32,000 nt of DNA, taken from NCBI GenBank assembly GCA_024275415.1, contig JAJRZD010000081.1:1-32000 (forward strand), read 5' to 3'. A model generated the notes under the pieces. It searched no databases, was not told the origin of the DNA, and saw nothing but the letters and a program-made list of their open reading frames with translations. This DNA comes from an archaeon. GTDB lineage: Archaea; Asgardarchaeota; Thorarchaeia; Thorarchaeales; Thorarchaeaceae. This document shows positions 7,112 to 27,332 of this stretch, piece by piece (within the stretch, counting starts at the first letter, position 1; each line of letters starts with the position of its first letter). Position numbers and translations under genes: made by a program.

Positions 7112-9307
7112 TTACGTACCTCCGTGCGATCCCGAACGAGATCGGCTTTTTCCTCTGGCTCTCCTTCCACGGCGTCTCGCCTCCTTCTTCAGGATGCGCT
7201 GCTGTTCGTTCGCGTATCTGCGACGCGACCAAATGTATGCAAAGCCGAACCCAGGAGCTGCAATCAGACCAACCATAGCCAGGATTTGCCATGTGACAAG
7301 TGGCGTCACAAAATCGGTCTGACCAAGAATTTTAAGTCTATAGAAAGGACTCGTTCCAAAATTCCCACTCTCATCCAGCGCCTCAGCATAATACGAGATG
7401 ACATCCCCACCTCCGAAGACGCCAAGATCCACCTGCCAAACGAGTTCATTGCCATCCACTGAAACCCAAGTCATGTTCACCTTTGTGAAAGAGCCATCAT
7501 TGACCTTCCAGTTCAGGGCACATGTGACTAGTGAGCTGTGCAACGGGAACTCGTATGTCGTGAATTCAAGAATGATTTCGTCTCCGCTCTTCGGTTCACT
7601 TGGGTAGATGTTCCTCAGGGTAAGGATGGGTTCGAAGATGTCGGCCCTCACGATGAAATAGTATGACCCCGCCACAAAATCCACGCCCTTCGTGTCGTTT
7701 GCATAGACAAGGAAATTGACCCTTGCAGAGTCATTCAAACAGCCAAAGGTGCTGTTGTAAATCCCACCTACTTCGGGATTGGGGGATAGAACGATTATTC
7801 CCTGTGTTATGGTTCCATTGATATCACAAGTATAGTTCACCCATACACAGTCGATGCCATCCGAATCAAGTGCTATGCATGATACAAGTATCTCATCGGT
7901 GGGGCGTGGGGAAACAGGGTTGATACGGACGCTGGATATAATAGGCAGACCATACGACCAGACTCGTTCAAGGGCGATGATACCAACACCTTGAACCAAC
8001 GTATGATGCATCTTCCATGAATCAGTCAGACATTGCCATTCTTGGTTCCCGTTCTGCCAGAACCCGCCGTTCTCAGTGTCCCACAGGCGAGATAATACCA
8101 ACTCAAGGATGTCAATGGTCATCTGGACATAGAATGTGAGGTCAGTAATCTCATACATCTTCTGGAGAACGAGAACCATCTGGAATTGAATCTCGGTGTA
8201 CTTGTAGTACTTGACATCTTTATCGTCCAACGAGTCATACGGCTCTCCTTCTAATACCTCTGCAAACCAACCACCTTTCTCTGTATCCCAATTATATTTC
8301 AAGAGGGCCTTCATTGTGCTCTCTGCCAGTGACAGATAGGTAGAGTCTCCTGTGTAGTTATAAGCTGTCAAAAGAGCGCTGATTGCATATGCATTCAGGT
8401 CAGATACGACAACCTCAGCAGACCGTTCATTTACCCCGACCTCGACGCTCCCTCCAGTTCGATTAACGGCCAATTTGAATCCGTAATATTCTCCTTGAAA
8501 GTCCTTCCTCATATTGTCAATCATAAAGCGTAGTGATGCATTCGCTATTGCAGTGTAAGTCGAATTTCCAAACTCTTCTCCTGCATTGTACAGTGCGATA
8601 ATCCCAAGTGCAAGATGGTCAAGCCGTTTTCCGTCATTCGGATAGACCTCATACATATAGTCGGGGGTCTTCAGTGAACCGTTCCTGAGTGTGTAGAAAT
8701 ACAGACCACCGTTCTCAGGGTCATATAACATATCTGTCAGACAACGGATGGCGCTCAGTTTCTCGTTAGTAAAGTCGAGAGAAGAATTGACTTTCTCGGC
8801 AATCCGCAATGCATCATAAGCATAGCTTTGGACTCCCGCTCGCTTTGTGGTTCTTGCCTCATAAGGCGAAAACAGGTTGACTCCATATCCCGGATAGTCA
8901 GAATCAAGGAATAGCTCGACCATCCGATTTGCAGCACGGCTAACCATAATGGACAATGTGCTGTTAGGAGTTCCCTCCTTCTTGGAAACCTCATATAGTC
9001 GGGCCAGTCCACAGATTGCCCAGTAATAGTCGGCAAGGCTTGGTAATAACGTGATCATTTCGTACATTGAATCAGCCGAACGAAATATCGACCCATCGCT
9101 GTAGTTGCACAAGTGCTCGAGTATGATGTTTCCGGCGGCCTTTGAAAAGTCCAGATAGCTGCTGATGTTGTATTCCTGCGAGGTGTAGAAACCACCGTTC
9201 ACTTGTTCTAGATTAGCCACTCTACCTCCCAGATCATGCGAAGGTATGGCCAAGCCAATGATGAAAGTCGATAGTATTATTCCTAGTAGTACTTTGTTAC
9301 GCATCAT
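7112..9307 (-). CDS. Exported, membrane-anchored protein with a six-hairpin glycosidase-like (AGE/YyaL-type) helical barrel and beta-rich C-terminal domains
   Basis: N-terminal signal-like segment; repeated barrel motifs (LTAYNYTGDSTYLSLA, NWDTEKGGWF, LWDTENGGFW, LYDPENGGLY); C-terminal TM helix with an Arg-rich tail. Its stop abuts the ccmF start. Confidence 0.6.
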   Translation of the reverse strand: MMRNKVLLGIILSTFIIGLAIPSHDLGGRVANLEQVNGGFYTSQEYNISSYLDFSKAAGNIILEHLCNYSDGSIFRSADSMYEMITLLPSLADYYWAICGLARLYEVSKKEGTPNSTLSIMVSRAANRMVELFLDSDYPGYGVNLFSPYEARTTKRAGVQSYAYDALRIAEKVNSSLDFTNEKLSAIRCLTDMLYDPENGGLYFYTLRNGSLKTPDYMYEVYPNDGKRLDHLALGIIALYNAGEEFGNSTYTAIANASLRFMIDNMRKDFQGEYYGFKLAVNRTGGSVEVGVNERSAEVVVSDLNAYAISALLTAYNYTGDSTYLSLAESTMKALLKYNWDTEKGGWFAEVLEGEPYDSLDDKDVKYYKYTEIQFQMVLVLQKMYEITDLTFYVQMTIDILELVLSRLWDTENGGFWQNGNQEWQCLTDSWKMHHTLVQGVGIIALERVWSYGLPIISSVRINPVSPRPTDEILVSCIALDSDGIDCVWVNYTCDINGTITQGIIVLSPNPEVGGIYNSTFGCLNDSARVNFLVYANDTKGVDFVAGSYYFIVRADIFEPILTLRNIYPSEPKSGDEIILEFTTYEFPLHSSLVTCALNWKVNDGSFTKVNMTWVSVDGNELVWQVDLGVFGGGDVISYYAEALDESGNFGTSPFYRLKILGQTDFVTPLVTWQILAMVGLIAAPGFGFAYIWSRRRYANEQQRILKKEARRRGRRARGKSRSRSGSHGGT

Positions 9308-9460
9308 GACATGTTGCTACTCCTTTTGATTGGTGCTTTGAACGTTTCGCAATGTAAGGTCATATCCTATATTTGCAATCCACCGACGAACGTTTTGGAG
9401 AAAAATATCCGGCGGGATGATTAACATCCCACCTTCTCAATTCTCCGTCCTCTCCGCTAC

Positions 9461-9640
9461 CTACCGGCGTCTGCCAACTAGGAGTCCCATGATCATCCCG
9501 ATGAAGATTCCACCCACAGCGGCACCAGCCAACGTGAGCGAATCATATGCGGTCGGACCAAAGGCAGCCACTGCCAAAGTGACTGCTCCTATGATGGAAG
9601 CGGACAGTATTATTCCCAGAATTACATTGTTGTGTTTCAT
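9461..9640 (-). CDS. Small two-TM membrane protein, 59 aa (not in ORF track)
   Basis: Hand-translated: MKHNNVILGIILSASIIGAVTLAVAAFGPTAYDSLTLAGAAVGGIFIGMIMGLLVGRRR. GAAGGAG lies upstream and an in-frame TAG precedes the ATG. The C-terminus is nearly identical to that of the cytochrome. Confidence 0.75.
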   Translation of the reverse strand: MKHNNVILGIILSASIIGAVTLAVAAFGPTAYDSLTLAGAAVGGIFIGMIMGLLVGRRR

Positions 9641-9736
9641 AATCTATTGATACTCCTTCAATCAAATTGCTTTGATCGGTTCACAAAAGCAGGATACATT
9701 CCGTATTCGGTATGTCTACTGCAGGACTCATCGGAG

Positions 9737-9780
9737 AAAAAAAGTTGAGGGGGGGATACACGTCCCCACCTTTTGTTTTC
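9737..9780 (-). terminator. GC hairpin flanked by T-tracts after the cytochrome gene
   Basis: GGGGA-TACACG-TCCCC stem, with AAAAAAA on the left (U-tract on the minus strand) and TTTTGTTTT on the right. Confidence 0.6.
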
Positions 9781-9798
9781 CCCATTCTCATTCGCTGC

Positions 9799-11184
9799 CT
9801 AGCGGCGTCTGCCTACTAGGAGACCTAGGATCAAACCGATGAAGATTCCACCTACAGCGCCACCAGCCAACGTTAGAGTATCGTATCCAGCGGGCAGAGG
9901 TGTTGTTGGAGTTACTGTTACGGTTTCGGTTACAGTAACGGTTTCCGCTGGAACATTCGCGTGGAAGTATGCGATCGTGTCTAGCAACTTCGTGTATGCA
10001 GCTGTGACATCAGCGTACATATTCAGAGGATCGTGGAAACCGTGTGAACGATCATTTACCTGAAGGTCAACGGCATCCGCTGCCTCTGTAATGTTGGCAT
10101 ACACTTCAGCAACTAGTTCATGATCAGCACCATCAGTCGCATTGTATGCAAGAAGCTCTGCTTCAAAATCGTTGTATGTCGCTTCGAATTCTTCAACTAG
10201 GGCGTCGAAGGTGTTTTGAATCGACTCCAGTTGATTGACAGCCCACTCCTCCATTCCCTGATGACATTCTTCAGCCTGGCCACAAGCAAGGTCGGGCTTG
10301 ACAACGAATGTATGGTTCAGGAAGTAAGTGGTGTTATCACCAGGAATCGCAAGATCGTAGCCGTGACAATCGATACATTCGACACCTGCAAGGTGGTGTG
10401 GACCACCATACCAGATGTTGTAGGTATCATGGTGCGATCCAACGTGGCAAAGCGCACACAGTTGAGTCGCGTTCACAGCACGGATCATCCCAGGTCCTAC
10501 ATCCGTCCAATTGCCATGCACAGAGTGACAGGCTGGACAAGAAACAGGGTTATAATCTCCTGAAGGATCAGGGTTGTCCTGATGAATGAATCCTTCTGTT
10601 GACATACAGTGCATACAGAACGACTGCGCGTAAGCACTAGCGCGTAGGTCGGTCAACGAGTTTGCATGAGCCGAGTTCTGCCATGGGACATACTGATGTG
10701 GATGTTCCTCACCAGAGGGTCTGTGACAGTTTGAACACACCTCACCAGAGTAGTCCACGTATCCTGTGGAATTGTGACAGGCAAAGCAGTTGACTCCTAG
10801 GGAATCGTACGTAGGTGTACCCGTGGAGTTATCCCAACCGCTCGTGTGACACTGTGCACAGGACGAGTTGAAGTACGCCTGCGAGATGTTAAGGTAAGCT
10901 CCAATCTGTACATGAGTGGAGTTGACCTTTTTCATGTGAGTGGCATGTTCAGACAGGCTCCAATTGCCGTACTCGTCAGCATGACAGGTCTGACAATCAG
11001 ACGGGTCAGTACCGTAAGTCGGCAATGCAAGCTCGTGTTCTCGTCCGTCAGTCCCGACTATAGTAATCGGGATGCCGGCACCGGTTGGTCCTAGAAGAAC
11101 AGCGAATCCGATCAAGCAGAGGAACAGGTAGTATCCTGACACCATCCGCTTGCTCATCCTTGGCGAATCGGTATAGTATACCAT
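9799..11184 (-). CDS. Membrane-anchored multiheme cytochrome c (7 CxxCH plus one CxxCM and one Cx5CH) with a NrfA/HAO-like C-terminal helical region
   Basis: CQTCH, CAQCH, CFACH, CSNCH, CPACH, CALCH, CIDCH; also CMHCM and CGQAEECH. Long helices ending in DRSHGFHDP, a Thr-rich linker, a TM helix and RRR. Start placed at ATG 11184 after GGAG (ORF track 11220). Confidence 0.92.
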   Translation of the reverse strand: MVYYTDSPRMSKRMVSGYYLFLCLIGFAVLLGPTGAGIPITIVGTDGREHELALPTYGTDPSDCQTCHADEYGNWSLSEHATHMKKVNSTHVQIGAYLNISQAYFNSSCAQCHTSGWDNSTGTPTYDSLGVNCFACHNSTGYVDYSGEVCSNCHRPSGEEHPHQYVPWQNSAHANSLTDLRASAYAQSFCMHCMSTEGFIHQDNPDPSGDYNPVSCPACHSVHGNWTDVGPGMIRAVNATQLCALCHVGSHHDTYNIWYGGPHHLAGVECIDCHGYDLAIPGDNTTYFLNHTFVVKPDLACGQAEECHQGMEEWAVNQLESIQNTFDALVEEFEATYNDFEAELLAYNATDGADHELVAEVYANITEAADAVDLQVNDRSHGFHDPLNMYADVTAAYTKLLDTIAYFHANVPAETVTVTETVTVTPTTPLPAGYDTLTLAGGAVGGIFIGLILGLLVGRRR

Positions 11185-11848
11185 TGTTGATTCTCCATGT
11201 TCTTCGTGGATTACGGTCATAATAATAGAATTTGCAGGGATTTAAGTCTGTTCATCAATTAGTGGGATTAATCACAGAATAGGATGTTCTCGCGACTACT
11301 TTATTTTTGTACACCTTAATTTTGAAACCTGTTTTGCTAAAAAGTAAGCAGATTGTATGCACTACTGAAAAAATAGTAATAATCTCAAAACAATATAGGA
11401 CATGATGCTACAGGTACACGAAGAAGTACGACATTCAGCTAAAATGTTCGATATCGATAGAAACCCTGTTAGCGAGCGTCCTGTTTCATACATCACTTTA
11501 GTATAGGAACAGGAGCATGTCATCATTTTTGTCTTCCATATGCATAGATTTCTAGCATTCTTGAATGTCCTCGTTTATTGTCTGCCTTGTGGACAAAATT
11601 GCAAAATAAAAGGAGAGGAAGAAAAGAGATCTTCTTCCCTAAACTAGTTCTATCTCTTACGAGTCAGTGCTATCACAACAATGACAACAACATACCAATT
11701 ACGGCCAAGAAAATAACCTCCGTTGGAATCCACTCCATGCTGAGGTTCAGCGACGGCCTGTTCGAGAAACATACCTTTGTTATAGTCGTCAATATGAAGA
11801 CCGACTGTAATGGCTCCACCTGCTGCATCTGTAAAGGTAGAAAGAACC

Positions 11849-12295: not shown

Positions 12296-13795
12296 TCAGG
12301 GAATGAGAAGTGCAGCTGCTGCATTTGCCAGATTGGTGATAGGGGCAGGAAACCAGAACAGGACAAGTACCAGAATTGCACAGATGCCTACTATGGATAC
12401 GGGAATTCTTGGGAGTGATAGTGGACCTTCTTCACTGGCAGTCCTAAAGTACATGGCACGCACAACTCTGAAATAGTAACCTAATGAGAATGTGACATTA
12501 AGGAAAGCAAACAGACCAAGCCACCAGAGCCCAACCTCCACGGTACTCATGAAGAGTACGAACTTTGGTGTGAATCCTGCCGTGAATGGGATTCCCATGA
12601 GAGATATCATGATAATAGCAAGGAATGCTGCTGCAAGCGGATGTCTTACACTCAAACCATTCAGTTGTTCGTATGTGATCCTCTTCTGAAGCTTGATGGA
12701 CATTGCAAAGACCAAGACGAAAGCGCCTGTCTTCATAATCGCGTGTATGAAAGCAAGGAAGAACGCTGCGGATATCGCGAATTGCGTGTCTACTGCAAAC
12801 CCCACAAAGACGTAACCCATCATCGCGATGCTCGAAAAAGCAAGCATCTTGAGAATGTCCTTCTGTGCCAGAGCAAGAAAGTTGCCAATCACCATCGTGA
12901 GGATTGCAATCACCACGATGAGGGGATACCACTCGAACCTAGCTGCTATGAAACCTACCAGAAGGATCCGCGCTAATGCGCTGATACCAGTCTTCTTCGT
13001 CGCCCCTGCAAGGTAGGCTGTAACACTACCATCAGCGGCAGCATAAGTATCAGGAACCCACATCCAGCCGGGAAATATCCCGATTTTGAAACCAAACGCG
13101 ATGACGAAAAGGGCCATCGCCAATAGGAGTGTATATGCCTGTGATTCCAATGACGCGGGCGCAGCCCAGATAGCAGCTACTCCCACACCGACCTCTGCTA
13201 TCACTGTAGTGCCAAGAGCACCAAAGACCAGAGCAATCCCAAACAGCATGAATATGGTTGAGATGAGTCCCATGACGAAGTACTTTGTTGCACCGTCGAG
13301 CCCCAGCCTATCAGGACTGAGAGCAACAAGGATGTATGTAGGGGTACTCATCAACTCCCATGCCATGAATAATGCTACGAGGTCAGTGGCCATAACTACC
13401 CAAATTGCTCCAGCGAATGAGATGAGGAACAGGAAATTGTATGGCCCCTTGTCCCCACCATACTGAGTGGCGGAAATCATCACAAGAATCGCCACGAGAA
13501 GCACCAGATAGATGAAGAAATCTGCAAATGCATCACGGACGAACAAGCCTCCGAATGACACGCCGTATGTGCTTGAATCAAGCGCAGCTACTTCCAGTAT
13601 GGCCAGAATAACCCCGATGATACTGACTGGCAACGGATTATATCGAAGACCGATGATCAGAGAGAGGATAGAAAACAGGATAAGGGTTAGGACTGGAATC
13701 GAACCGTACCAGTCTGCCGGAAGCTGTACTAATACATCTCTCAGGGGTACTAACATGGCTGCAAGGATATCAGTGAATATGTTGCTTTGTATCAT
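12296..13795 (-). CDS. nuoN: Complex I-like antiporter subunit N
   Basis: AWELMS, GATKYFVMG, FGFKIG, WVPDTY, KMLAFSSIA, FTPKF and YYFRVVRAMY motifs. Confidence 0.92.
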   Translation of the reverse strand: MIQSNIFTDILAAMLVPLRDVLVQLPADWYGSIPVLTLILFSILSLIIGLRYNPLPVSIIGVILAILEVAALDSSTYGVSFGGLFVRDAFADFFIYLVLLVAILVMISATQYGGDKGPYNFLFLISFAGAIWVVMATDLVALFMAWELMSTPTYILVALSPDRLGLDGATKYFVMGLISTIFMLFGIALVFGALGTTVIAEVGVGVAAIWAAPASLESQAYTLLLAMALFVIAFGFKIGIFPGWMWVPDTYAAADGSVTAYLAGATKKTGISALARILLVGFIAARFEWYPLIVVIAILTMVIGNFLALAQKDILKMLAFSSIAMMGYVFVGFAVDTQFAISAAFFLAFIHAIMKTGAFVLVFAMSIKLQKRITYEQLNGLSVRHPLAAAFLAIIMISLMGIPFTAGFTPKFVLFMSTVEVGLWWLGLFAFLNVTFSLGYYFRVVRAMYFRTASEEGPLSLPRIPVSIVGICAILVLVLFWFPAPITNLANAAAALLIP

Positions 13796-15352
13796 TTAGG
13801 GTGAACCTCCTAGCATAAAGGCCACAACACTTTGAGTGAAGTTTAAGACTAGATCAGGCCAGAACCCAAGCAGTATGACAGGAATCATCATGAGTACCGG
13901 CGCTATTAGGTCACTCCGGGATGCCTCATGAATCTCCATCTCGGGATCAGGATCACTAAAGACCATTCGATTCAGTGTCCAAAGTATATACCCGACCGTG
14001 AGAAAGATTCCGAATCCAATAATGCCAGCCCAGATATAGATCGTGACTGCGCCGAACAGTATTAGAGCCTCAGCAATGAATCCGCTGAAACCAGGAAGCC
14101 CAAACGCAGCCAGTGCGGCGAGGATGAAGACAGAGGTCATGTGCGGGGCCTTTGCAAGTAGACCCTTGATCTTAGTGATCTCACGGGTGCCTGCGGCATA
14201 TTTGAGCTGTCCGGCCATGATAAACATCACAGAGATGATGGTTCCATGAGAGAACATCATGAATATGGCACCTTGAATTGCAAGATGTGCAGCACTCTGA
14301 AGAACAGGATCGGAGCTAGCTAGACCAGCGGCCCCAACTGACACACCCAGAAGAACCCAAGACATGTGATTGATTGAGGTATATGCTACCATGGATTTCA
14401 TGTCGGTCTGAGCCATAGCTGTGAATGCCGCATAGATACAGGTGAATACTGCCAGAATCGCAAGAGGAATGCTCAAACGAGCGAACCCTCCAGGAATCAT
14501 CCAGAGACCTAACCTGATGAACGCATAGCCTCCCATCTTCAGCAGGATGCCAGCAAGAATGACAGAACCTGGAGTGGGTGCTTTGACATGCGCCCACGGG
14601 AGCCAATTGTGAAGTGGAAACACGGGGAGCTTGACTCCAGCACCCATGAACACAGCCAGCGCGAACCCGATTTGAATCTCAGGAGAGAGTCCCATGTTCC
14701 GCAGGAGAACCATATTGAAAGTGGGCGTTGGTGCCACGAAGAATAGCACAAAGAATGAGATGACCATGATTGCTGAGCCGAAATGGGTATAGATGACAAA
14801 CTTGACAGCTGCATGCTGTGCTCCTTCCTCACCCCATTTGCCAATGATGAAGAACATGGGTATCAGGACAAGCTCCCAAAAGACAAAGAAGCTGAAAAGG
14901 TCGATGGACATGAAAACCCCCAAGAGTCCTGATTGGAGCATCAGGAAGAACCCGTAGTACATGGACTTGGATTCCTTGATGTGATTGGAGCTTATGGCAG
15001 CAATCAAGACGACCAGATTTGAGAGGATGATCATGACTATCGAAAGTCCATCCACACCAAGCAGGATTTGTAACACTGGGGGATTCTCACCTGTTGCAAG
15101 AGCCGTGATAGTGAACTGCCAGCCCAATGCACCACCAGTGGGGTCATCAAGTTGGATTGCTGGATCGACTATCAGCCCCAGAATGATGGACAGGACGAAC
15201 TCGATGATAACGATGACCATGGTGATAGCTCTTGCTGTCCTTGAACCGAGGATAATCACAGCAAACGCTGCAATCAATGGTAGGAACAGCATAAATGGAA
15301 GGATGCCCAAGGGCAACGCGGAAACGATTGATTGAATGATATCCATCTGCAT
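13796..15352 (-). CDS. nuoM: Complex I-like antiporter subunit M (canonical copy)
   Basis: GVDGLS, FWELVLIPMFF, VKLPVFPLHNWLP, GILLKMGGY, AYTSINHM and GFIAE motifs. Confidence 0.93.
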   Translation of the reverse strand: MQMDIIQSIVSALPLGILPFMLFLPLIAAFAVIILGSRTARAITMVIVIIEFVLSIILGLIVDPAIQLDDPTGGALGWQFTITALATGENPPVLQILLGVDGLSIVMIILSNLVVLIAAISSNHIKESKSMYYGFFLMLQSGLLGVFMSIDLFSFFVFWELVLIPMFFIIGKWGEEGAQHAAVKFVIYTHFGSAIMVISFFVLFFVAPTPTFNMVLLRNMGLSPEIQIGFALAVFMGAGVKLPVFPLHNWLPWAHVKAPTPGSVILAGILLKMGGYAFIRLGLWMIPGGFARLSIPLAILAVFTCIYAAFTAMAQTDMKSMVAYTSINHMSWVLLGVSVGAAGLASSDPVLQSAAHLAIQGAIFMMFSHGTIISVMFIMAGQLKYAAGTREITKIKGLLAKAPHMTSVFILAALAAFGLPGFSGFIAEALILFGAVTIYIWAGIIGFGIFLTVGYILWTLNRMVFSDPDPEMEIHEASRSDLIAPVLMMIPVILLGFWPDLVLNFTQSVVAFMLGGSP

Positions 15353-15353
15353 T

Positions 15354-17675
15354 TTACAGAACCCCCATTGTTATGAGAATCACCAGTATCATTATTCCCA
15401 GACCGAAGATGATGACAGAAACATAGTCATTGATGCGTCCTGTCTGAACGGCTTGACCTGATTCTGAGGCGCCAACACTATGGGTTGATACACCTTCCGC
15501 GAAGCCATCAACGATATGGTCATCAAACCAGCGGACACGCCGCGAGATTTCCTTGGCAGTATCAGCAGACTTGAAGTCAATCCCGTCAATTATCTTGTTA
15601 TCAACCCGGACACGCCACCACTCGGCAGAGTTCAGGTACTTGTTGAGGATCCAGTAATAGAACTCGTTGATATACCACCTGTGTCGCAGGAAATTGTAGA
15701 CCTTGCGCCGTATCCCAGTTTCAGGAACGAATGTGTTGGGCCTGTCAGCATTCTTAATGTAAATGATGTAACCAGGTATGCCACCAAGTGCAAGAGCACC
15801 CAGTGTGATCATGAACGGGACGATGCCAGCCTCACTGAACTTTACAAAAATCATCTCTTGCAAGATGACACCCCATTCTTCCTCAGTCCTGAGAAGGAAG
15901 TTCTGGATGAATGGGAAGACTAGAAATGCGATGATAGTGAACGCCGCCAAAAGATACAGGGGAACCATCATGGCTGGACCCGGATCATGTGGCGTCGAGT
16001 GATGCTCCTCTTCCTCATGTCCTTTGGAGTGATCATCTTCATCAGACCCATCATGATGACCAGACTCGTGACTTTCATGTTCAGTCTTCTCAGGACCATA
16101 GAAGGTCAGTCCCATCAATCTGAAGCTATAGAAGATCGTACATGCAGCTGCGAGAACCGAGAAAAGGAACACTAACCATCCAACAGATATGAACAATGTT
16201 CCTCCGTGAGAGGTAATCTCTTGTTCGACGATCATCAATTCATACGAGTATTCGATGATTGAATCCTTTGACCAGAACCCTGAGAATGGAGGTATCCCAG
16301 CAAGCGCAAGAATGCCAATCCACATGACAGCAAACGTCTTTTTCATGTGCTTTTTCAGACCACCCATTTTCGACACGTACTTCGTGTGGATAGCATGGAT
16401 GACCCCACCAGAAGCAAGAAAGAGAAGTGCCTTGAACGCACCATGTGAAATGATATGCAAGATACTTGATAGATATGCCTTGTCATATGCGATATGAAGC
16501 TCGGTCAGATTCAAGACTTCATGAGCATAAATCCCGTAAAACGCAAGCAGCCCTGCGGCGCCAAGTCCCAACATCATGTAACCTAGTTGACTCAGGGTCG
16601 AGAACGCCAGGATCTGCTTTAGCTCGTTCGAGGCGATACCCATAGTTGCAGTCAGCAAAGCTGTGACCGCACCAATAACAGCTACAACGATGAAGAAGAA
16701 TGTGATCACATCTGCCCCGGAAAGCTGTAGAAGGGATAGTCCGTGCTCTCCACCACCGCCATCTCCTGCTGAAACAGCTTGAGCACTGACTATGGTCAGA
16801 AGGAATCGTGCAGTGATGTAGATACCAGCCTTGACCATCGTTGCTGCGTGGATGAGGGCTGAAACTGAGGTTGGACCAGCCATTGCTTCTGGTAGCCATA
16901 CTTGCAAGGGGGCTTGTCCGGACTTGCCAATCGCTCCCATGAAGATGAGGAGGAATGTAGGAACAAGCATTCCAATCCCAGCCATGACACCCCACCAGTT
17001 TTGAAAGTTCTCGGACATAAGGCTGAAAGAGAAAGTACCTGTGAATGTGAAGAGCAAGAGGATTCCGCCAAGCATGAAAGCATCACCAATCCTTGTGACG
17101 ATGAATGCTTTCGTACCAGAATGCGTGTTGTATTGCCCCTCTGTTTCGAACTGGAGAAGAGGGTTCTTGTATTCTATTGGGTCAGGCTCGACCTCCGGTG
17201 GATTACGCTTGTCATTCCAGAAACCGATGAGTCCATAGGAGCAGAAGCCCATTATCTCCCAGCCGATGAATGCAATGAGAAGGTTATTGCTCAGCACAAG
17301 TGTAAGCATTCCTCCACCAAATGCAAGCATGAGGAAGAAGAATCTGTCGCGGTCCTCTTCATGCGCCATGTATTCGGTGGAGTAGACATAGATGAGAAAA
17401 CTCAGTGTGCTGGCAAGTACTGCCATAATAATGGAAAGAGGGTCAAGGAGCATCTCAAAGTTGATGCCAAGATATTCAATCCAGACCCACGAAGTAGTGC
17501 CAGTAGGATTGTCTGCTTCAGCAAGGAGTGACCAGGATAGTACCATAGTGATTCCCATGATAATCGCAGGAGTCCAGTCTCTGAGCTTCTCACTGAATTT
17601 TCCAACCACTGGAACTAGTAAGGAACCGGCAAGAGGGAGCACCAAGATGAGATAGTAGGGTAAGCCAAATATCAT
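15354..17675 (-). CDS. nuoL: Complex I-like antiporter subunit L with an extended lateral helix
   Basis: GWEIMG, TRIGD, GKSGQAPLQVWLPEAMAGPTSVSALIHAATMVKAG, FSTLSQLGYM, HGAFKALLFL, FWSKD, and C-terminal QTG..DY with a final TM helix; 773 aa. Confidence 0.95.
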   Translation of the reverse strand: MIFGLPYYLILVLPLAGSLLVPVVGKFSEKLRDWTPAIIMGITMVLSWSLLAEADNPTGTTSWVWIEYLGINFEMLLDPLSIIMAVLASTLSFLIYVYSTEYMAHEEDRDRFFFLMLAFGGGMLTLVLSNNLLIAFIGWEIMGFCSYGLIGFWNDKRNPPEVEPDPIEYKNPLLQFETEGQYNTHSGTKAFIVTRIGDAFMLGGILLLFTFTGTFSFSLMSENFQNWWGVMAGIGMLVPTFLLIFMGAIGKSGQAPLQVWLPEAMAGPTSVSALIHAATMVKAGIYITARFLLTIVSAQAVSAGDGGGGEHGLSLLQLSGADVITFFFIVVAVIGAVTALLTATMGIASNELKQILAFSTLSQLGYMMLGLGAAGLLAFYGIYAHEVLNLTELHIAYDKAYLSSILHIISHGAFKALLFLASGGVIHAIHTKYVSKMGGLKKHMKKTFAVMWIGILALAGIPPFSGFWSKDSIIEYSYELMIVEQEITSHGGTLFISVGWLVFLFSVLAAACTIFYSFRLMGLTFYGPEKTEHESHESGHHDGSDEDDHSKGHEEEEHHSTPHDPGPAMMVPLYLLAAFTIIAFLVFPFIQNFLLRTEEEWGVILQEMIFVKFSEAGIVPFMITLGALALGGIPGYIIYIKNADRPNTFVPETGIRRKVYNFLRHRWYINEFYYWILNKYLNSAEWWRVRVDNKIIDGIDFKSADTAKEISRRVRWFDDHIVDGFAEGVSTHSVGASESGQAVQTGRINDYVSVIIFGLGIMILVILITMGVL

Positions 17676-17687
17676 TTCATGATCACC

Positions 17688-19241
17688 TCATGGAGTTGGG
17701 GCTTGGAATGGTATGATGTTCGCAATTTCACTGACAACCGGCACAATGACATCTAGTGCAACACCCGGGAATATCCCAAAGAATACGATAAGGAATCCCA
17801 GAATGATCATCGGGACTGTCATGGAACGCGGCCCTTCGACAACATCCGCAAGTTCTTGAGGGTGCGGGCCTAAGAATACCTTCCATAGGAATCTGAGCAT
17901 GTAGCCTGCACTCAATATCGAACTTAGTACAGCCAGTATACTGAGACCCAGCATCAATGGCTGCACAATGGCTTCACTTCCTGGAGGTGCGGCAGCATGG
18001 AACCCTCCAACGAACATCATCCACTCACTCGCAAATCCAGACAGCGGTGGACTACCTGCAATGCTCATCGCACCGATTGCAGCCATGAATGCCGTAATGG
18101 GCATCTTGTTAGAAAGGCCTCCCATCTCGTCGATGTTACGTAGTCCGGTCTGGTGCATCACTGCTCCAGCAGTCATGAATAGCAAGCCCTTTGAGAATGC
18201 GTGGTTTATTAGATGGAAGAGACCTCCTGATACGCCATAGACCGAGAAGACACCCAGAGCAAAAAGGACATAGCCCATCTGGCTCACAGATGAATACGCA
18301 AGCAATCTCTTGATGTCTTTCTGAACGAGTGCCATGAACCCACCGTAGAACATGGTAATTACACCAATCGCAGCAACATATACCGAAAGGTCAAATGCGG
18401 CAGAACCGAGGGTAATGGTGCCGAACCGTACGAGCGCATATGCGCCAGTTTCAATCATAGCACCTGACAGGAGGACCGAAATGGGCGTAGGAGCCTCAGC
18501 ATGAACGGGAGGGAGCCACCAGTGAATCGGGAACACAGCTAGCTTCACCAGAAATCCTGCAGCGAGTAAGATGAATATGATCTTCAATAGCTCCGATGCA
18601 CCGACATATGACGCAATCATTCCTTGGATGACTGCCAGCTCGAATGTCGTGGCGCCACTGAGGAAATAGAGAAGACCGAAGCCGATAAGGATACAGACAG
18701 CTCCACTCTGAGTGTATAACCAGAACTTGAGAGCGGTTCGTTTCCGGGTTTCAGGAAGTCCCCAGAACAGAATCAGGAAGTAAGAGGGCACCAGCATGAG
18801 TTCCCATGCGATGAAGAACTCGATGAGGTTTGTCGCAAGGGTGACCCATTGCATACCCATAATGAAAAAGAGCTGGTTTGCAAAGAACGTCGGGCGACTG
18901 TGCTCGTGGGATGTATAACCCACTGCATAAACAACTGAAAGGAATCCCAGAATGACTACTGCAAAAGTGATTGGGAACGCGATCCCATCGAGCCTGAGAC
19001 CGAATGCCCCTAAGATGTCGGACCATGCAAGGGTCTCTTGAGCAATGTTATACAAGCGCTCTTCGAACATGACACGGTAGAACGGAGGTAGCATCAGAAC
19101 TACTGCGAGCCCCGATACCAACGCAGCAATCTTTCCTGCGCTTTTTTCCAGCCTGCCTCTCATAAGGTAGATGGCAAGAGCTCCAATAAAGAGCACAGCG
19201 AGAGATGTGCCCATGAATGGAAATTCAAACGCAGTCTGCAT
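17688..19241 (-). CDS. nuoM: Second NuoM-like antiporter subunit (M')
   Basis: AWELMLVPSYFLI, VKLAVFPIHWWLPPVHAEAPTPISVLLSG, KRLLAYSSVSQMGY and GFASEW motifs. An MrpD/HyfF-type origin is not excluded. Confidence 0.75.
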   Translation of the reverse strand: MQTAFEFPFMGTSLAVLFIGALAIYLMRGRLEKSAGKIAALVSGLAVVLMLPPFYRVMFEERLYNIAQETLAWSDILGAFGLRLDGIAFPITFAVVILGFLSVVYAVGYTSHEHSRPTFFANQLFFIMGMQWVTLATNLIEFFIAWELMLVPSYFLILFWGLPETRKRTALKFWLYTQSGAVCILIGFGLLYFLSGATTFELAVIQGMIASYVGASELLKIIFILLAAGFLVKLAVFPIHWWLPPVHAEAPTPISVLLSGAMIETGAYALVRFGTITLGSAAFDLSVYVAAIGVITMFYGGFMALVQKDIKRLLAYSSVSQMGYVLFALGVFSVYGVSGGLFHLINHAFSKGLLFMTAGAVMHQTGLRNIDEMGGLSNKMPITAFMAAIGAMSIAGSPPLSGFASEWMMFVGGFHAAAPPGSEAIVQPLMLGLSILAVLSSILSAGYMLRFLWKVFLGPHPQELADVVEGPRSMTVPMIILGFLIVFFGIFPGVALDVIVPVVSEIANIIPFQAPTP

Positions 19242-19673
19242 CTAACGAAACCTCCTTCCTCTCCACTCCAAAGGCTCTCTGTCGAGCGTTGTAATCTTTT
19301 CAGGGCCATAGATCAGGTCTTCTCGCTCTCCCTCTGCCATATCGACAATTGGAGTGTGGTAGAGGGCATCGAACCTGCAAGCGTCCACACAGAGCCCACA
19401 GAATATACAGCGGGTATAGTCAAAGTAGAGTGCAGCATCCTTCTCGTACATCTTATCTGCCTTGTCAATTCGGATGGCAAGAACTGGACAGGCACGCACA
19501 CATTGAGCACAAGCTGTACAATTCTGACGGACATGTATGTGTCGCCCGCGAGTACGTTCAGGGTAGGGTCTATCCTCGAAGGGGTAGAGGCTAGTAAACG
19601 GTCTCTTGAAGATTTGTCGGAAGATATGCTTCAGTATGGTAAAGACTTCGCCAAGATTTCTAAGGAATCCCAT
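19242..19673 (-). CDS. nuoI: Complex I-like 2x[4Fe-4S] subunit I
   Basis: CTACAQCVRACP and CIFCGLCVDAC; also T.LYPFE and R.RGRH. Confidence 0.93.
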   Translation of the reverse strand: MGFLRNLGEVFTILKHIFRQIFKRPFTSLYPFEDRPYPERTRGRHIHVRQNCTACAQCVRACPVLAIRIDKADKMYEKDAALYFDYTRCIFCGLCVDACRFDALYHTPIVDMAEGEREDLIYGPEKITTLDREPLEWRGRRFR

Positions 19674-19679
19674 CTCATT

Positions 19680-20822
19680 CTAACCTCCCACAAGCAAAAG
19701 TGCCAGTCCAGGCACATAGACAATGGCAAGCATTGCTATTATGACATTCAACATTGATAACGGCAGCAGGTACTTCCAGCAGTATCTCACAATTTGATCC
19801 TGCCTGAGCCTGTGAAACGATGAGCTCACTGTCACAAAGACAAAGAGCATGATCAAGAACTTGATGATGAAGTTCACTGCCCCAGGTAGCCATGGAACCC
19901 CATAGAAGCCTCCAAAGAAGAAGGTCACCATGAGGGCTGAATAGAGCATCTGCTCAGCAAACTCCGCAAAATAGGTAAGTGTGAAATAGACTCCTGAGAA
20001 TTCCGTGCGCCACCCAAAGATGATCTCAGAATCTGCAACAGGAGCATCGAATGGGAACACACCTACAGAGATTATAGATGCAGTCAAGAACGTCGCGAAG
20101 TTGATTGGTAGCAGAAAGATGAACCAGACCGAACTTTGAGCTAGGGCAATACCCATGATGCTGAGAGACCCAGCCAGCATAGCAGGACCCACTGACGACA
20201 TGATCATCGGAATTTCAGCGGCAAATTGATTGTTAGCAGCCCTGAATCCTCCAATAAGTGAGTATTTGGATCCACTTATCCATCCGGCAAGCAAAGCTAT
20301 CACAGGTACTGCTGCAAGGAATGCGAATACGAGCACCAGACTGACAGATAGATCTGCAATGAACCAGACCGTGTCCCAAGGAATGAAAGCGAATGGAACC
20401 AACACCACCACTAAGAGCAGAGATGGCAAGAACCGGTATGCCCACCGATGCGCTTTGTCTGGAATGATGATCTCCTTGGATATCAACTTGATCGCATCAG
20501 CAAAAAGCTGGACTCCACCGTACTTGCCCATGTGCATCGGGCCCCGACGCATCTGGATACGTCCCCAGAGCTTTCGTGTGAACCAGACAAAAAAGATGAG
20601 CCCCATCACAACGAAGATGAGCCCTGGAAATATGACAGCTTTGAACAAGAAGAAGATATTGTCGATGACAAGCGTCCATAGAAGATTGATCACGACCCAT
20701 AGCCAATCATATATCCCATAGATGATTCCTCTAATCACCTCGATGATATTGAATACCCATTGTGGGAGTCCCCTTAGCCAATCTACGAACCATTCGAATT
20801 GCAAGACTGCGCCTCCTGTCAT
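19680..20822 (-). CDS. nuoH: Complex I-like membrane subunit H
   Basis: RKLWGRIQMRRGP, ADAIKLISKE, PFDAPVADSEIIFG, TEFSG and RLRQDQ motifs. Start placed at ATG 20822, overlapping the nuoD stop as TAATG (ORF track 20837). Confidence 0.93.
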   Translation of the reverse strand: MTGGAVLQFEWFVDWLRGLPQWVFNIIEVIRGIIYGIYDWLWVVINLLWTLVIDNIFFLFKAVIFPGLIFVVMGLIFFVWFTRKLWGRIQMRRGPMHMGKYGGVQLFADAIKLISKEIIIPDKAHRWAYRFLPSLLLVVVLVPFAFIPWDTVWFIADLSVSLVLVFAFLAAVPVIALLAGWISGSKYSLIGGFRAANNQFAAEIPMIMSSVGPAMLAGSLSIMGIALAQSSVWFIFLLPINFATFLTASIISVGVFPFDAPVADSEIIFGWRTEFSGVYFTLTYFAEFAEQMLYSALMVTFFFGGFYGVPWLPGAVNFIIKFLIMLFVFVTVSSSFHRLRQDQIVRYCWKYLLPLSMLNVIIAMLAIVYVPGLALLLVGG

Positions 20823-21958
20823 TATCTGTCCCACCACCCCGGATACGGGTCTAGACTTCCGAATATCACAATGAAGTCAGCAAACCTCGCACTTGGAACC
20901 AAGTGCTTCAATGCATAATATGAATGGAAACACGGCCCACGGATCTTGGCTCGATAAGGAGTCTGCGCCTTTTCCAATGTCTTTAACCAAAGCGAAGTGA
21001 TGCCTCTTGCGCCCTCGACTCGGCCATATGCCTCTCCTTCTGGCAAGCGGTTAGCCTTGGCGCGTGCCTTGGGGTCAATAATCGGACCATCGGGAATCTG
21101 TGGAATAAGCTGTTTAATTATGTCCACTGAGGTCTTCACTTCGTTGAATCGCTGAACCATCCTGTCATAGGCATCACTCTCTCCTGGGTGGTCGGGGTGC
21201 TCTAGGATCGGAACCTCCCAGTCCACCATATCATATGCCAGATTCGGATCCGGCTGATCCTTTCTCAAATCCATTGGGATGCCACATGCCTTGATGTTGG
21301 GTCCTGAAAGACCCCAGCGCAAAGCCTCTTTAGCCGAATATTGTCCTACGCCTTCAGTACGCATCCTGAAAAGTGGGCTTTTCATCAACATATCCTCGAA
21401 TTTTGGCATGTTATATTCTAGCACTTGAATGGCTTTCTCCAGTTTTGCCAGAACTTTCTCAGTAAAGTCGAATCGTAATCCTCCAGGAGTGCTAAAATGC
21501 GGCGAGTGTCGCACACCTGTGAGTTCCTCGAAGGTATCCAGAAAGAACTCCCTGTCAACCCAGGGCCAGAGTGTCATCGCAAAGAATCCCATTTCAGCAG
21601 ACAGCTGTCCCCACCAGAATTGATAGGAATGTATCCTGCTGGCCTCCATCATGATCGTCCGGAGCACCTTTGCTCGTTCAGGTACTACTAACCCGGCGAT
21701 CTGCTCTACAGCGCTGATATATGGGTACTCCGCAAGGAAAGCTTCGAGCATACATAATCGCTCAAGGATTGGTGAACCCTGTCGAAAGTTACGATACTCG
21801 AGGCATTTCTCTGCAGACCTGTGAAAATACCCGGCATGAGGATCACACTCCACTATGAAGTCGCCTACAAGTTTCAACTTGGTGGCCCAGCCATGGGCAG
21901 ATACGTGCTGAGGTCCAAACCAGACCTCCACTGTTTCATCAAGGATGTCAGGTGTCAT
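20822..21958 (-). CDS. nuoD: Complex I-like subunit D (no NiFe site)
   Basis: GPQHVSAHG, GYFHRSAEK, GEAYGRVEGARG and PYRAKIRGP motifs, ending DPYPGWWDR. No RxCxxC/DPCxxC pairs. Confidence 0.92.
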   Translation of the reverse strand: MTPDILDETVEVWFGPQHVSAHGWATKLKLVGDFIVECDPHAGYFHRSAEKCLEYRNFRQGSPILERLCMLEAFLAEYPYISAVEQIAGLVVPERAKVLRTIMMEASRIHSYQFWWGQLSAEMGFFAMTLWPWVDREFFLDTFEELTGVRHSPHFSTPGGLRFDFTEKVLAKLEKAIQVLEYNMPKFEDMLMKSPLFRMRTEGVGQYSAKEALRWGLSGPNIKACGIPMDLRKDQPDPNLAYDMVDWEVPILEHPDHPGESDAYDRMVQRFNEVKTSVDIIKQLIPQIPDGPIIDPKARAKANRLPEGEAYGRVEGARGITSLWLKTLEKAQTPYRAKIRGPCFHSYYALKHLVPSARFADFIVIFGSLDPYPGWWDR

Positions 21959-22461
21959 TTCTTAGCACCTCCTTCAGGTCTGGGTTTCCTGACTGGAAGA
22001 CCGGTTTCTGCTTGTCTGCTGCGGTCGGTCTGGAAGCTCTTACGCATCGGGTATTTGCCTACGAGCTCGTCCGGTAAAAGAAGCGGACGCAGGTCAGGAT
22101 GACCCGTGAACATAATTCCGAACATCTCGTGTGTTTCACGTTCGTGCCATTCTAAACCAGAAAAGATGTCACAGCATGCTGGGAGTGAAGGGTTCGAGCC
22201 CTCCAAGTTCACCTTGAGTTGGATGATCATCCGGTCTTTGTGCGACCAGAACATGTAGTTGACCTGGTACTTGTCATCACCCAGATCAACACCGAACGCG
22301 GATTCGGGAATAACCTCTGGGAAAGTTTCATCGACCAAAGTGATGACATCGCGAATTATGTCCTTGCCCACTGTGAACTCGATGTGATGTTCGTTTATCG
22401 TCTTGACATCTATGTCAGGAAATTTGGTGGTGAATGTCCGCACAATCCCTGCTGCATCCAT
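21955..22461 (-). CDS. nuoC: Complex I-like subunit C
   Basis: WHERETHEMFGIMFTGHPDLRPLLLP and YPMRK motifs; overlaps the nuoD start by 4 nt. Confidence 0.93.
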   Translation of the reverse strand: MDAAGIVRTFTTKFPDIDVKTINEHHIEFTVGKDIIRDVITLVDETFPEVIPESAFGVDLGDDKYQVNYMFWSHKDRMIIQLKVNLEGSNPSLPACCDIFSGLEWHERETHEMFGIMFTGHPDLRPLLLPDELVGKYPMRKSFQTDRSRQAETGLPVRKPRPEGGAKK

Positions 22462-22462
22462 C

Positions 22463-22774
22463 TCATTTCACCTCTGCTTGTACTGGACTGCCAAGATCCA
22501 CATGTCCGTACCTGCGGTTGTACAATAGCATAAGAACCAAAGCAAGGGCTGTGTGTGCAGCTGCTATTGCGATCACTAGGATGACAAGTCCTTGAGGAGT
22601 GTAGGAGAAGACTCCGCCGTAGACTGCAAAAGCTACAAGGGCGATGTTCACACCATTCCCCATTATCTCAGCCCCGATAAGGATACGAATCAGGTTCCTT
22701 TTCACTATCATGCCATAAGCACCTAGACCGATGAGCATGAATGCCACAACCAGATACCAACTCAGTGGAACCAT
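22463..22774 (-). CDS. nuoK: Complex I-like subunit K
   Basis: KRNLIRILIGAEIMGNGVN and AIAAAH; 3 TM helices. Confidence 0.9.
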   Translation of the reverse strand: MVPLSWYLVVAFMLIGLGAYGMIVKRNLIRILIGAEIMGNGVNIALVAFAVYGGVFSYTPQGLVILVIAIAAAHTALALVLMLLYNRRYGHVDLGSPVQAEVK

Positions 22775-23394
22775 CAGTTCGTTGCCTCCTCTGTCTTCTC
22801 ATCATCGGGCATTGGGGCCGCCTCGACTCCGAACTCGGCTGTGATGTCCTTCAAGGTCTCTGCCTTTTCCATCTTCATCAGAGCGAGTGTCCCAACCAGT
22901 GTAGTAAGGATGATCAAAGCAATAATTTGAACGTAGAGCCCGTGGGATTGCCAGAGCCATTCCGCCAGTCCTTGTAGACTCTGGGCATATTCCGGCATTC
23001 CTTGAGGGATGTCTGTTGACCATGGAAATACCAAAGCAAGCCCTCCAGACATTGCCATGACGAAAGCAGAAAGAAGCAGCCCTATTTTCCGTGCACGCGG
23101 CGAGGGAAGCACTTCCAGTGTCCGATCCTGTGCTCTGGGAAGAAGCAACACTCCAAATATGATCAATGCACTGATACCACCAGTGTATACCGCTATCTGC
23201 ATCCCTGCTATGAAAGGCGCTTCAAGTAATAGGAAAAGTCCTGCAACGAAGCTTGCCATGACGCCAAAGAAGAAAGCAGCATATACTATGTCCTTGTGCT
23301 CAAGGGCCAGATATCCAAATACCAAGATAATGCCAGCCAATAGGAGGAATTCGACTTGCTCGAATAGCTGCAGGAGTGGGTCTAGTTCTTGCAT
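22774..23394 (-). CDS. nuoJ: Complex I-like subunit J
   Basis: LLEAPFIAGMQIAVYTGGISALIIFGVLL; 5 TM helices. Confidence 0.9.
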   Translation of the reverse strand: MQELDPLLQLFEQVEFLLLAGIILVFGYLALEHKDIVYAAFFFGVMASFVAGLFLLLEAPFIAGMQIAVYTGGISALIIFGVLLLPRAQDRTLEVLPSPRARKIGLLLSAFVMAMSGGLALVFPWSTDIPQGMPEYAQSLQGLAEWLWQSHGLYVQIIALIILTTLVGTLALMKMEKAETLKDITAEFGVEAAPMPDDEKTEEATN

Positions 23395-23405
23395 CTCATT
23401 TCACC

Positions 23406-23837
23406 TCAATGCATGTGCTTAGTTTTCTGGGCTTTCTTGGCTTCATGATAGAGTTCCAGTGTTTCTTTCCCGTCCAGTGCTGCCTGCGGCAGAATCCTCA
23501 TTGAAAAGCTGATGGCTCCCATGATGAGAGCAATGAAGATCAGTGCCTGCCAGAGAATAAGTGCCTCTAGCCTTAGGGTCGAGGCAGAGAGAAGCCAGAG
23601 AAAGGCGCCCATCACGTCGATCACCACGAACAATATCGTATAGACGATGTAGTTGTAAGGGTAGGAAATACGGGCAGGGCCGATTGGATCCTCACCACAT
23701 TCGTACGGGGATGTCTTTGAAGAGTTCTGAAGGACATGCGGTCGTAACACCCAAGAAGCCAGAAGCATCACAATGACAAGAACCACAGCCAGAAGGGCCC
23801 ACACAACTACAGGAATAAAATCCACAAATAGCCTCAT
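23406..23837 (-). CDS. nuoA: Complex I-like subunit A
   Basis: KTSPYECGEDP and FVVIDV motifs; 3 TM helices. Start placed at ATG 23837 after GAGGAGG (ORF track 23879). Confidence 0.92.
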   Translation of the reverse strand: MRLFVDFIPVVVWALLAVVLVIVMLLASWVLRPHVLQNSSKTSPYECGEDPIGPARISYPYNYIVYTILFVVIDVMGAFLWLLSASTLRLEALILWQALIFIALIMGAISFSMRILPQAALDGKETLELYHEAKKAQKTKHMH

Positions 23838-23921
23838 AATCCAGATTCCTCCTCGCTCAGATGAAGGGGTTGATAGCATCTGCGAATAACCTTGGCAATC
23901 CTAGACAGTTTGGAATAGGTG

Positions 23922-24702: not shown

Positions 24703-25194
24703 TTACTCTTTTTCAGTTTCTACCGTTGTAGCTTCTAATTCAAATTCGACATCAGGAGCAACAGGACCATAATGGAGCTTGCTCACATCCATTATCCCTT
24801 CGGTGTATGCTTCGTCATCACGCGTCATCTTCAACATTGCTGCACCACCAGATGCGACGATAGCAGAACCGATTCCCCACGAGGCATACCAGATCGTGTC
24901 AGCTACGTCCCATTGGAATGACACAAGAGTCAGGATAATGAACATGACTGACACAAAAGATGCGATAGATAGAAACAGGTTCTTCATCTTCCCTCGATCG
25001 GGTACGAAATAGCCAAGTAGCAACACCGACAACAGAATGGGGCCACCAAGTAGAAAGGCCAGATTGGAAGTTTCGAAGGCCGCTGACCCTGTGGTCATCT
25101 TGAAGATGAACTCAACAAAATATGCGGTCATCATCACGACTCCAATCCAGAACATGCAATACCTATCTGCGTCCTCATTCAACCTGCGATTCAT
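24703..25194 (-). CDS. Hypothetical 4-TM membrane protein with an acidic tail
   Basis: Four hydrophobic segments. Its start overlaps the stop of the FAD-NuoB gene (ATGA). Confidence 0.8.
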   Translation of the reverse strand: MNRRLNEDADRYCMFWIGVVMMTAYFVEFIFKMTTGSAAFETSNLAFLLGGPILLSVLLLGYFVPDRGKMKNLFLSIASFVSVMFIILTLVSFQWDVADTIWYASWGIGSAIVASGGAAMLKMTRDDEAYTEGIMDVSKLHYGPVAPDVEFELEATTVETEKE

Positions 25195-27146: not shown

Positions 27147-27191
27147 CAGGTTGTCCAGACACCACTTGCTTTGCGATTGACTTCATGCCTG

Positions 27192-27199
27192 CATAAAAA
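27192..27199 (-). promoter_or_regulatory. Putative TATA box of the FAD-NuoB gene in a divergent promoter region
   Basis: TTTTTATG on the minus strand, 45-60 nt upstream of the candidate starts. A plus-strand TTTAAG near 27255 could serve the divergent gene. Confidence 0.4.
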
Positions 27200-27332
27200 C
27201 CTAGCGAGTGACCTACATCTTAGCGTAGACTTGAATGGGAAGGTATTTGTGGACTTTAAGCTTGGTTCTGATAGCAAGAAAAAGGAATTCGATGCGATAC
27301 ACATTTCAACGCAAAACAGTGAGGTAAGAAAC

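Follow-up and report, generated by a model that had tools for sequence, protein, structure and literature searches.

We analysed a 32,000-nucleotide (nt) stretch of DNA, called the window below, from an Asgard archaeon of the family Thorarchaeaceae (GenBank assembly GCA_024275415.1, contig JAJRZD010000081.1, positions 1 to 32,000). The window holds a Thor-type Asgard complex-I-like operon of the '2M' kind, which has four genes for antiporter-like pump subunits instead of the usual three. The analysis centred on one of these genes, nuoL, whose product carries the long lateral helix (HL) that straps the pump subunits together, and on M', the gene of a second M-type subunit directly before it. 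Assignment of the open reading frames (ORFs) of the window to Pfam families gave the following genes, listed from upstream to downstream with protein lengths in amino acids (aa):

25191-27146, minus strand: NuoB fused to an FAD-linked oxidase in one 651-aa ORF (PF01565, PF02913, PF01058)
23406-23879, minus strand: nuoA
22774-23394, minus strand: nuoJ
22463-22774, minus strand: nuoK
21955-22461, minus strand: nuoC
20822-21958, minus strand: nuoD
19680-20837, minus strand: nuoH
19242-19673, minus strand: nuoI
17688-19241, minus strand: M' (P0005, 517 aa), the second M-type antiporter-like subunit (PF00361 at 8.4e-71)
15354-17675, minus strand: nuoL (P0001, 773 aa), the antiporter-like subunit with the lateral helix (PF00361 at 1.9e-55, PF00662 at 1.9e-14)
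13796-15352, minus strand: nuoM (P0002, 518 aa; PF00361 at 8.9e-59)
12296-13795, minus strand: nuoN (P0003, 499 aa; PF00361 at 3.8e-57)

The NuoB-flavoprotein fusion lies upstream of the operon core in the same direction and is followed by a gene of unassigned function and then by the order A-J-K-C-D-H-I-M'-L-M-N. The operon is tightly packed, with intergenic gaps of 0-12 nt; M' comes directly after nuoI and ends 12 nt before nuoL. Genes for NuoEFG were not found by Pfam assignment of the window ORFs. The genome, which is 92.9% complete, has four PF00361 genes, and all of them stand in tandem in this operon.

The product of nuoL has the features of the NuoL/ND5/MrpA type: the domains Proton_antipo_N and Proton_antipo_M, the channel residues E140 (the Glu of transmembrane helix 5, TM5), K251 (the Lys of TM7) and K470 (the Lys of TM12), and a C-terminal TM15-HL-TM16 arrangement, of which HL and TM16 are present in an AlphaFold2 model. 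This model, made from a 54-row alignment, reached a predicted template modelling score (pTM) of 0.85, and DSSP divided its HL into helices at residues 655-664, 666-721 and 723-743. The features at the C-terminal end of NuoL are as follows:

15447-15713, minus strand: lateral helix HL, residues 655-743 (~89 residues), from the AlphaFold2 model
15582-15602, minus strand: motif copy 1, DNKIIDG, residues 692-698, from the translation
15504-15524, minus strand: motif copy 2, DDHIVDG, residues 718-724, from the translation
15474-15554, minus strand: extra module, ~residues 708-734, as aligned by MAFFT (27-column gap)
15369-15434, minus strand: TM16, residues 748-769, the anchor at the far end of HL, a helix in the AlphaFold2 model

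An original prediction, made from the letters of the window alone, had pointed to two DxxIxDG-type motifs with a 26-aa period at 15504-15602, and we found both at that place and with that period. The spacing from DNKIIDG to DDHIVDG is exactly 26 residues, the two copies are adjacent and in phase, and the likeness continues slightly upstream of the motif with a one-residue insertion or deletion (RVRV-D versus RVRWF-D). The motif had also been described as normally single. This is the case in E. coli, in canonical Cytophagales operons and in Asgard clusters with one nuoM (one-M clusters), although it does not extend to every NuoL lineage.

To measure the helix, we defined its HL core as the stretch that begins with the RWY-type start motif and ends at the QTG-type motif ahead of TM16. 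The HL core of this NuoL is 81 aa long, compared to 52 aa in E. coli NuoL, 55-56 aa in canonical Cytophagales operons and 52-56 aa in 18 three-pump clusters (almost all from Asgard archaea and including J-K-L-M-N paralogues of the same family). In three clusters with L and one other pump gene, the core has only 28-29 aa. Alignment with NuoL of E. coli, Thermus and known 2M systems had been proposed as a check on the lengthening, and a net insertion relative to one-M NuoLs is indeed present: the gain is about 26 aa (difference 25-29 aa), and in the MAFFT alignment every one-M Asgard NuoL has a gap of 27 columns facing ~residues 708-734, bounds that reflect the placement by MAFFT, as the position of an indel within a tandem repeat is arbitrary. 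Furthermore, copy 1 of the motif is as far from the RWY start as the single motif is in one-M NuoLs, and copy 2 stands at the canonical distance (~20 residues) before the QTG that precedes TM16. The first copy thus keeps the single-copy spacing on the N-terminal side and the second keeps it on the C-terminal side, as an internal tandem duplication predicts. At a helix rise of 1.5 Å per residue, 26 residues span ~39 Å, which is roughly the width of one antiporter-like subunit.

To place the repeated unit in the fold, we compared the model with E. coli NuoL (7p64_L). VIA-align gave a Z of ~43 over residues 1-722, and model residues 1-688 superposed tightly on E. coli residues 1-561 (root-mean-square deviation 2.2-2.5 Å), with residue 688 superposed on residue 561 in the fit at 2.2 Å. 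Motif 1, which starts at D692, therefore corresponds to the D563-M569 kink of E. coli NuoL. Within this kink, NuoM is approached most closely by P564, L565 and N566 (Belevich et al., PMC3274701); thus, the repeated unit contains the NuoM-docking site. In fold, in the TM15-HL-TM16 arrangement and in an acidic kink motif where HL touches NuoM, the protein resembles canonical NuoL/Nqo12/ND5 (E. coli 3RKO and 7P64, T. thermophilus 4HE8), but E. coli NuoL has one module (52 aa) where this one has two (81 aa). No structure of a 2M complex was among the solved NuoL homologues listed, and hydrophobic-moment profiles along HL gave no clear added information. Away from the strap, NuoL has a His/Asp/Glu-rich loop between two TM helices at ~residues 530-565 (15981-16088), where the predicted local distance difference test (pLDDT) falls below 50 at 535-558, and this loop may bind metal or simply be disordered; orthologues range in length from 728 to 844 aa, and the variation lies largely in loops of this kind.

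An extra NuoM-type gene had been predicted to match the lengthened helix, and M' is such a gene: it is intact, lies within the packed operon and co-occurs with the insertion in every Thor-type locus examined. It retains the TM5 Glu (E147), the TM7 Lys (K233), H347 and the M-type TM12 Glu (E406). The corresponding set in nuoM is E160, K241, K272, H329, H369 and the TM12 Glu E428, and the TM12 residue of nuoN is Lys K411, so that TM12 bears Glu in M' and M (E406, E428) and Lys in L and N. In a quick maximum-likelihood tree, M' and M both fell in the NuoM part, and M' grouped with NuoM of Asgard one-M clusters. M' stands directly before nuoL in 36 of the 36 Thor-type loci with upstream DNA, the NuoLs of all 36 carry both motifs, and the same M'-L arrangement was found in 14 operons of the same family that were fetched separately. 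As judged from the genes, M' would be physically built into the membrane arm, as had been proposed. In the same quick tree, the downstream M and N (12296-15352) grouped with E. coli-type NuoM and NuoN, L grouped with archaeal NuoL and M' with Asgard one-M NuoM; this split between M/N and M'/L could reflect a chimeric origin of the four-pump operon or a long-branch effect.

Across the Asgard sample, the length of the HL core followed the number of pump genes in a regular series:

L and one other pump gene: HL core 28-29 aa, motif-bearing unit absent (G031, G027, G028)
Three pump genes: HL core 52-56 aa, unit single (one-M clusters)
Four pump genes: HL core 81-82 aa, unit double (Thor clade; L118, labelled Heimdall; L062 of G025)

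As a rule of thumb, there is one strap module of 26-27 residues per M-type subunit (28-29, 52-56 and 81-82 aa). In the clusters of the first line, NuoL (L057 of G031, L063 of G027, L069 of G028) is accompanied by a single N-like pump and lacks the motif-bearing module. The Asgard one-M J-K-L-M-N clusters, among them same-family paralogues (G009, G010, G013, G014, G016 and G021), share with the present locus the archaeal-type NuoL clade, the RWYIN start and the QTG end, but their helix contains one module (55-56 aa) and their pump genes number three.

Internal duplication of the unit was clear in several other NuoLs. None of 300 shuffles reached the self-score of two Hod-type NuoLs (L123 and L127), of L064 (G039), of the Cytophagales proteins L154 and L155, or of L060 (G035:C25), which has three copies of the unit; for L062 (G025), a 25-residue self-match was reached by 5 of 300 shuffles. 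To follow changes in module number, we built a NuoL tree of 44 sequences from which the HL columns had been removed. In this tree, the lineages with clear duplications have one-module sisters, and the Thor clade and L118, both with two modules, are joined with full support. L062 grouped with the Thor clade when the HL columns were included, and its placement was unsettled when they were removed. The tree requires at least eight changes of module number among the 44 NuoLs, including one apparent loss (L057 beside L058); the position of L057 as sister to a one-module NuoL suggests that a module was lost there. A phylogeny had been proposed as a test for independent origin, and by this tree, duplications of 26-27 aa arose independently in several lineages. 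Straps therefore likely grow by tandem duplication of the docking module.

We then compared the locus with known systems, for which the literature was available in part. 2M complex I combines a second NuoM with a 26-aa HL insertion in NuoL, for example in Nitrospira (PMC9040806, PMC6606698), and the pairing on which the original prediction had drawn agrees with what these sources give. The type goes back to Chadwick, Hemp, Fischer and Orphan (2018, ISME J 12:2668) and is attributed to Nitrospira CI_1, Chloroflexota and Thaumarchaeota (via PMC9040806, PMC6606698, PMC7117926, PMC7300363 and PMC9038741). According to papers citing Chadwick 2018, the HL insertion arose convergently and is postulated to make room for four pumps; translocation of a fifth ion per cycle is a hypothesis in the literature, and an extra ion might likewise be pumped here. 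The present operon has four antiporter-like subunits in one cassette, two of them M-type, and an HL longer by ~26 residues (81 versus 52-56 aa; predicted helix ~89 residues). It is like 2M complex I in its second NuoM-type gene, in the gain of ~26 aa in the HL of NuoL and in the lack of NuoEFG, and unlike it in its Thor-type Asgard host, in its order A-J-K-C-D-H-I-M'-L-M-N and in a NuoB that lies outside the operon core and is fused to a flavoprotein. The locus is a clear new example of a published 2M design and not a new machine. In the available parts of the literature citing Chadwick 2018, the original paper being outside the comparison, no Thor-type example was found, and the change in HL is termed an 'insertion', not a duplication; nothing relevant emerged when full texts were searched for NuoL in combination with an internal or tandem duplication.

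Our preferred explanation, to which we give a probability of about 65%, is that the NuoM-docking module underwent an ancient tandem duplication, which made the strap longer by the width of one subunit in step with the gain of M'. HL would consist of an N-terminal cap, modules of 26-27 residues and a C-terminal cap leading into TM16, and each module would bear an acidic-x-x-hydrophobic-hydrophobic-D-G kink motif. With two modules rather than one, the strap could span L, two M-type subunits and N. The ancestor of the Thor-type clade would have acquired the second module when the first was duplicated in tandem and in frame, and both copies would thereafter have been retained by selection as docking sites.

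The points that weigh against this explanation concern the repeat itself, the model of the strap and the pairing with M'. In this one NuoL sequence, the evidence for duplication is weak: aligned in register, the two units have only 5 identities in 26 positions, and the highest-scoring local alignment of the helix with itself has a score of 27, which 31 of 300 shuffles reached (p about 0.1). At the DNA level, identity between the copies (39/120) is at the random level and leaves no trace of a repeat. In hhalign comparisons of each unit with the one-M HL profile, only 5-7 columns were aligned, in the wrong place, the segments being too short to inform. In addition, the distal HL (residues 717-746) has a pLDDT below 50 in the monomer model, which is expected because the strap was modelled without its partner subunits. 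The 26 residues may then have been inserted otherwise, for instance by expansion of a loop that turned helical, with the second D-x-x-I-x-D-G convergent through docking to M-type subunits. The identities are concentrated in the motif, and the motif lies at a functional contact point, so selection could have made it twice. We nevertheless regard such an origin as unlikely. What was inserted is one complete, in-phase unit of 26-27 aa whose flanks are at single-copy spacing; in several other lineages, the unit is duplicated beyond the motif; and L062, the 2M NuoL that a tree with the HL columns kept in groups with the Thor clade, has the 25-residue self-match noted above (5/300 shuffles). Moreover, 48 distinct Thor-type NuoL orthologues show almost no variation in either motif, and when these were used to build one alignment of unit 1 and one of unit 2, hhalign matched the two with P = 3.2e-4 over 9 columns. 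In a phmmer comparison, both copies in NuoL were also aligned to the one copy that cyanobacterial NdhF1 (6hum_F) has. Support for duplication as the origin of the longer helix, as had been proposed, thus rests on the profile of the 48 orthologues and on the clear duplications in other Asgard and Cytophagales NuoLs, and the present sequence taken singly carries little of it.

The other points concern the pairing of helix and pump. M' is a putative member of the complex, predicted from its gene, and in several systems, the strap has one module more than the pump genes account for. The original prediction had held that the same repeat in operons with one M would refute it; the repeat does occur in such operons in G039, G023:C12 and Cytophagales, and not in the Thor clade. 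G039 (89% complete) encodes a two-module NuoL with only L, M and N. A tblastn search of the 1.08-kb gap between its nuoL and nuoM for a decayed M' gave no antiporter remnant (best unrelated match E 0.011), and the ORFs in this gap had no Pfam match. G023:C12 has three pump genes and an 81-aa HL core (L070). In Cytophagales, clusters of the order H-I-J-K-L-M-N combine 81-aa cores with one M per operon, and in the three genomes that were checked, a single additional PF00361 gene stands alone outside the cluster. The insertion is also reported with one NuoM in Ca. Manganitrophaceae, in both Complex_I_1 and Complex_I_2 (PMC9040806). Finally, the operon of G035:C25 (order B-C-D-H-I-J-K-M'-L-M-N; nuoL L060 at 8579-10876, minus strand) has three modules and an HL core of 109 aa with only four pump genes, one module above expectation. 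The one-nuoM clusters with a long HL (Ca. Manganitrophaceae, Cytophagales, and Asgard G039 and G023:C12) are like the present locus in having an extra module of 26-27 aa at the same place in HL; unlike it, they encode only L, M and N, whereas a matching fourth pump gene is present here. Because two-module helices with one nuoM exist, two modules alone are not proof of a fourth pump; likewise, given these exceptions, helix length alone cannot call a hidden pump. The surplus modules raise the structural question of what sits beneath the extra module. A word-indexed search with the C-terminal 142 aa of G039 NuoL, aimed at bacterial 2M NuoLs such as that of Nitrospira, returned only six close relatives.

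On the strength of these systems, the long helix might be functionally unconnected with M', being surplus strap or serving another partner, and M' might have been added independently or act outside the complex. We consider this improbable, to about the same degree as an insertion of other origin. It fits poorly with the regular Asgard series of 28-29, 52-56 and 81-82 aa for two, three and four pump genes, and with the clade of Thor and L118, which gained both the long helix and M' while related NuoL clades are one-module and one-M. It also fits poorly with M' itself, which is translationally packed between nuoI and nuoL in 36/36 loci and has retained its channel residues.

A slightly more doubtful possibility is that the number of HL modules, and not the number of nuoM genes, reports the number of M-type positions in the arm. 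If this were true, arms with two modules and one nuoM, and arms with three modules and four pumps, would have one NuoM product in two positions or a recruited pump. The Thor-type operon would then be the 'resolved' state, with one gene per position, and modules would have been repeatedly gained and lost by tandem duplication and deletion (at least eight changes among 44 NuoLs). That the recurrence of the short motif is mere chance, with no true repeat behind it, is very improbable: the motif has only four fixed positions and 31 of 300 HL shuffles reach the self-score, but the length difference of 25-29 aa is independent of the motif, which counts against chance, and both copies are conserved in the 48 orthologues.

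The number of pumping subunits is thought to set the number of ions moved per electron pair in complex I. The locus presents a four-pump version that is complete and conserved in Asgard archaea, to which eukaryotes are more closely related than to any other archaea.

Several further observations were made in the relatives. The conserved 630-aa gene after nuoN in Cytophagales was considered as an extra membrane subunit and ruled out, as it encodes a glutamine-amidotransferase-type protein. Five other Cytophagales genes (L149, L150, L156, L157 and L158) are NuoL-like with two modules and stand alone, the ~9 kb to each side containing no further nuo gene. In G041, labelled Hodarchaeota (L133, L134), the most clearly duplicated NuoL lies in a two-gene L-M unit on one contig; a second contig holds J-K-N-like genes and a further pump gene by D-H-I-B, giving four dispersed pump genes.

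Around the operon core, the joining of NuoB to FAD_binding_4 and FAD-oxidase_C domains was also seen in operons of the same family. The divergent neighbour of the NuoB fusion (25191-27146, minus strand) is a CCG-domain iron-sulphur protein (27111-28556, plus strand). Downstream of the operon, at 9799-11220 and 5057-7111 (minus strand), lie the genes of a multihaem c-type cytochrome, which has a membrane anchor at its C-terminal end, and of a cytochrome c assembly protein; a multihaem cytochrome also follows nuoN in L032, a locus of the same genus.

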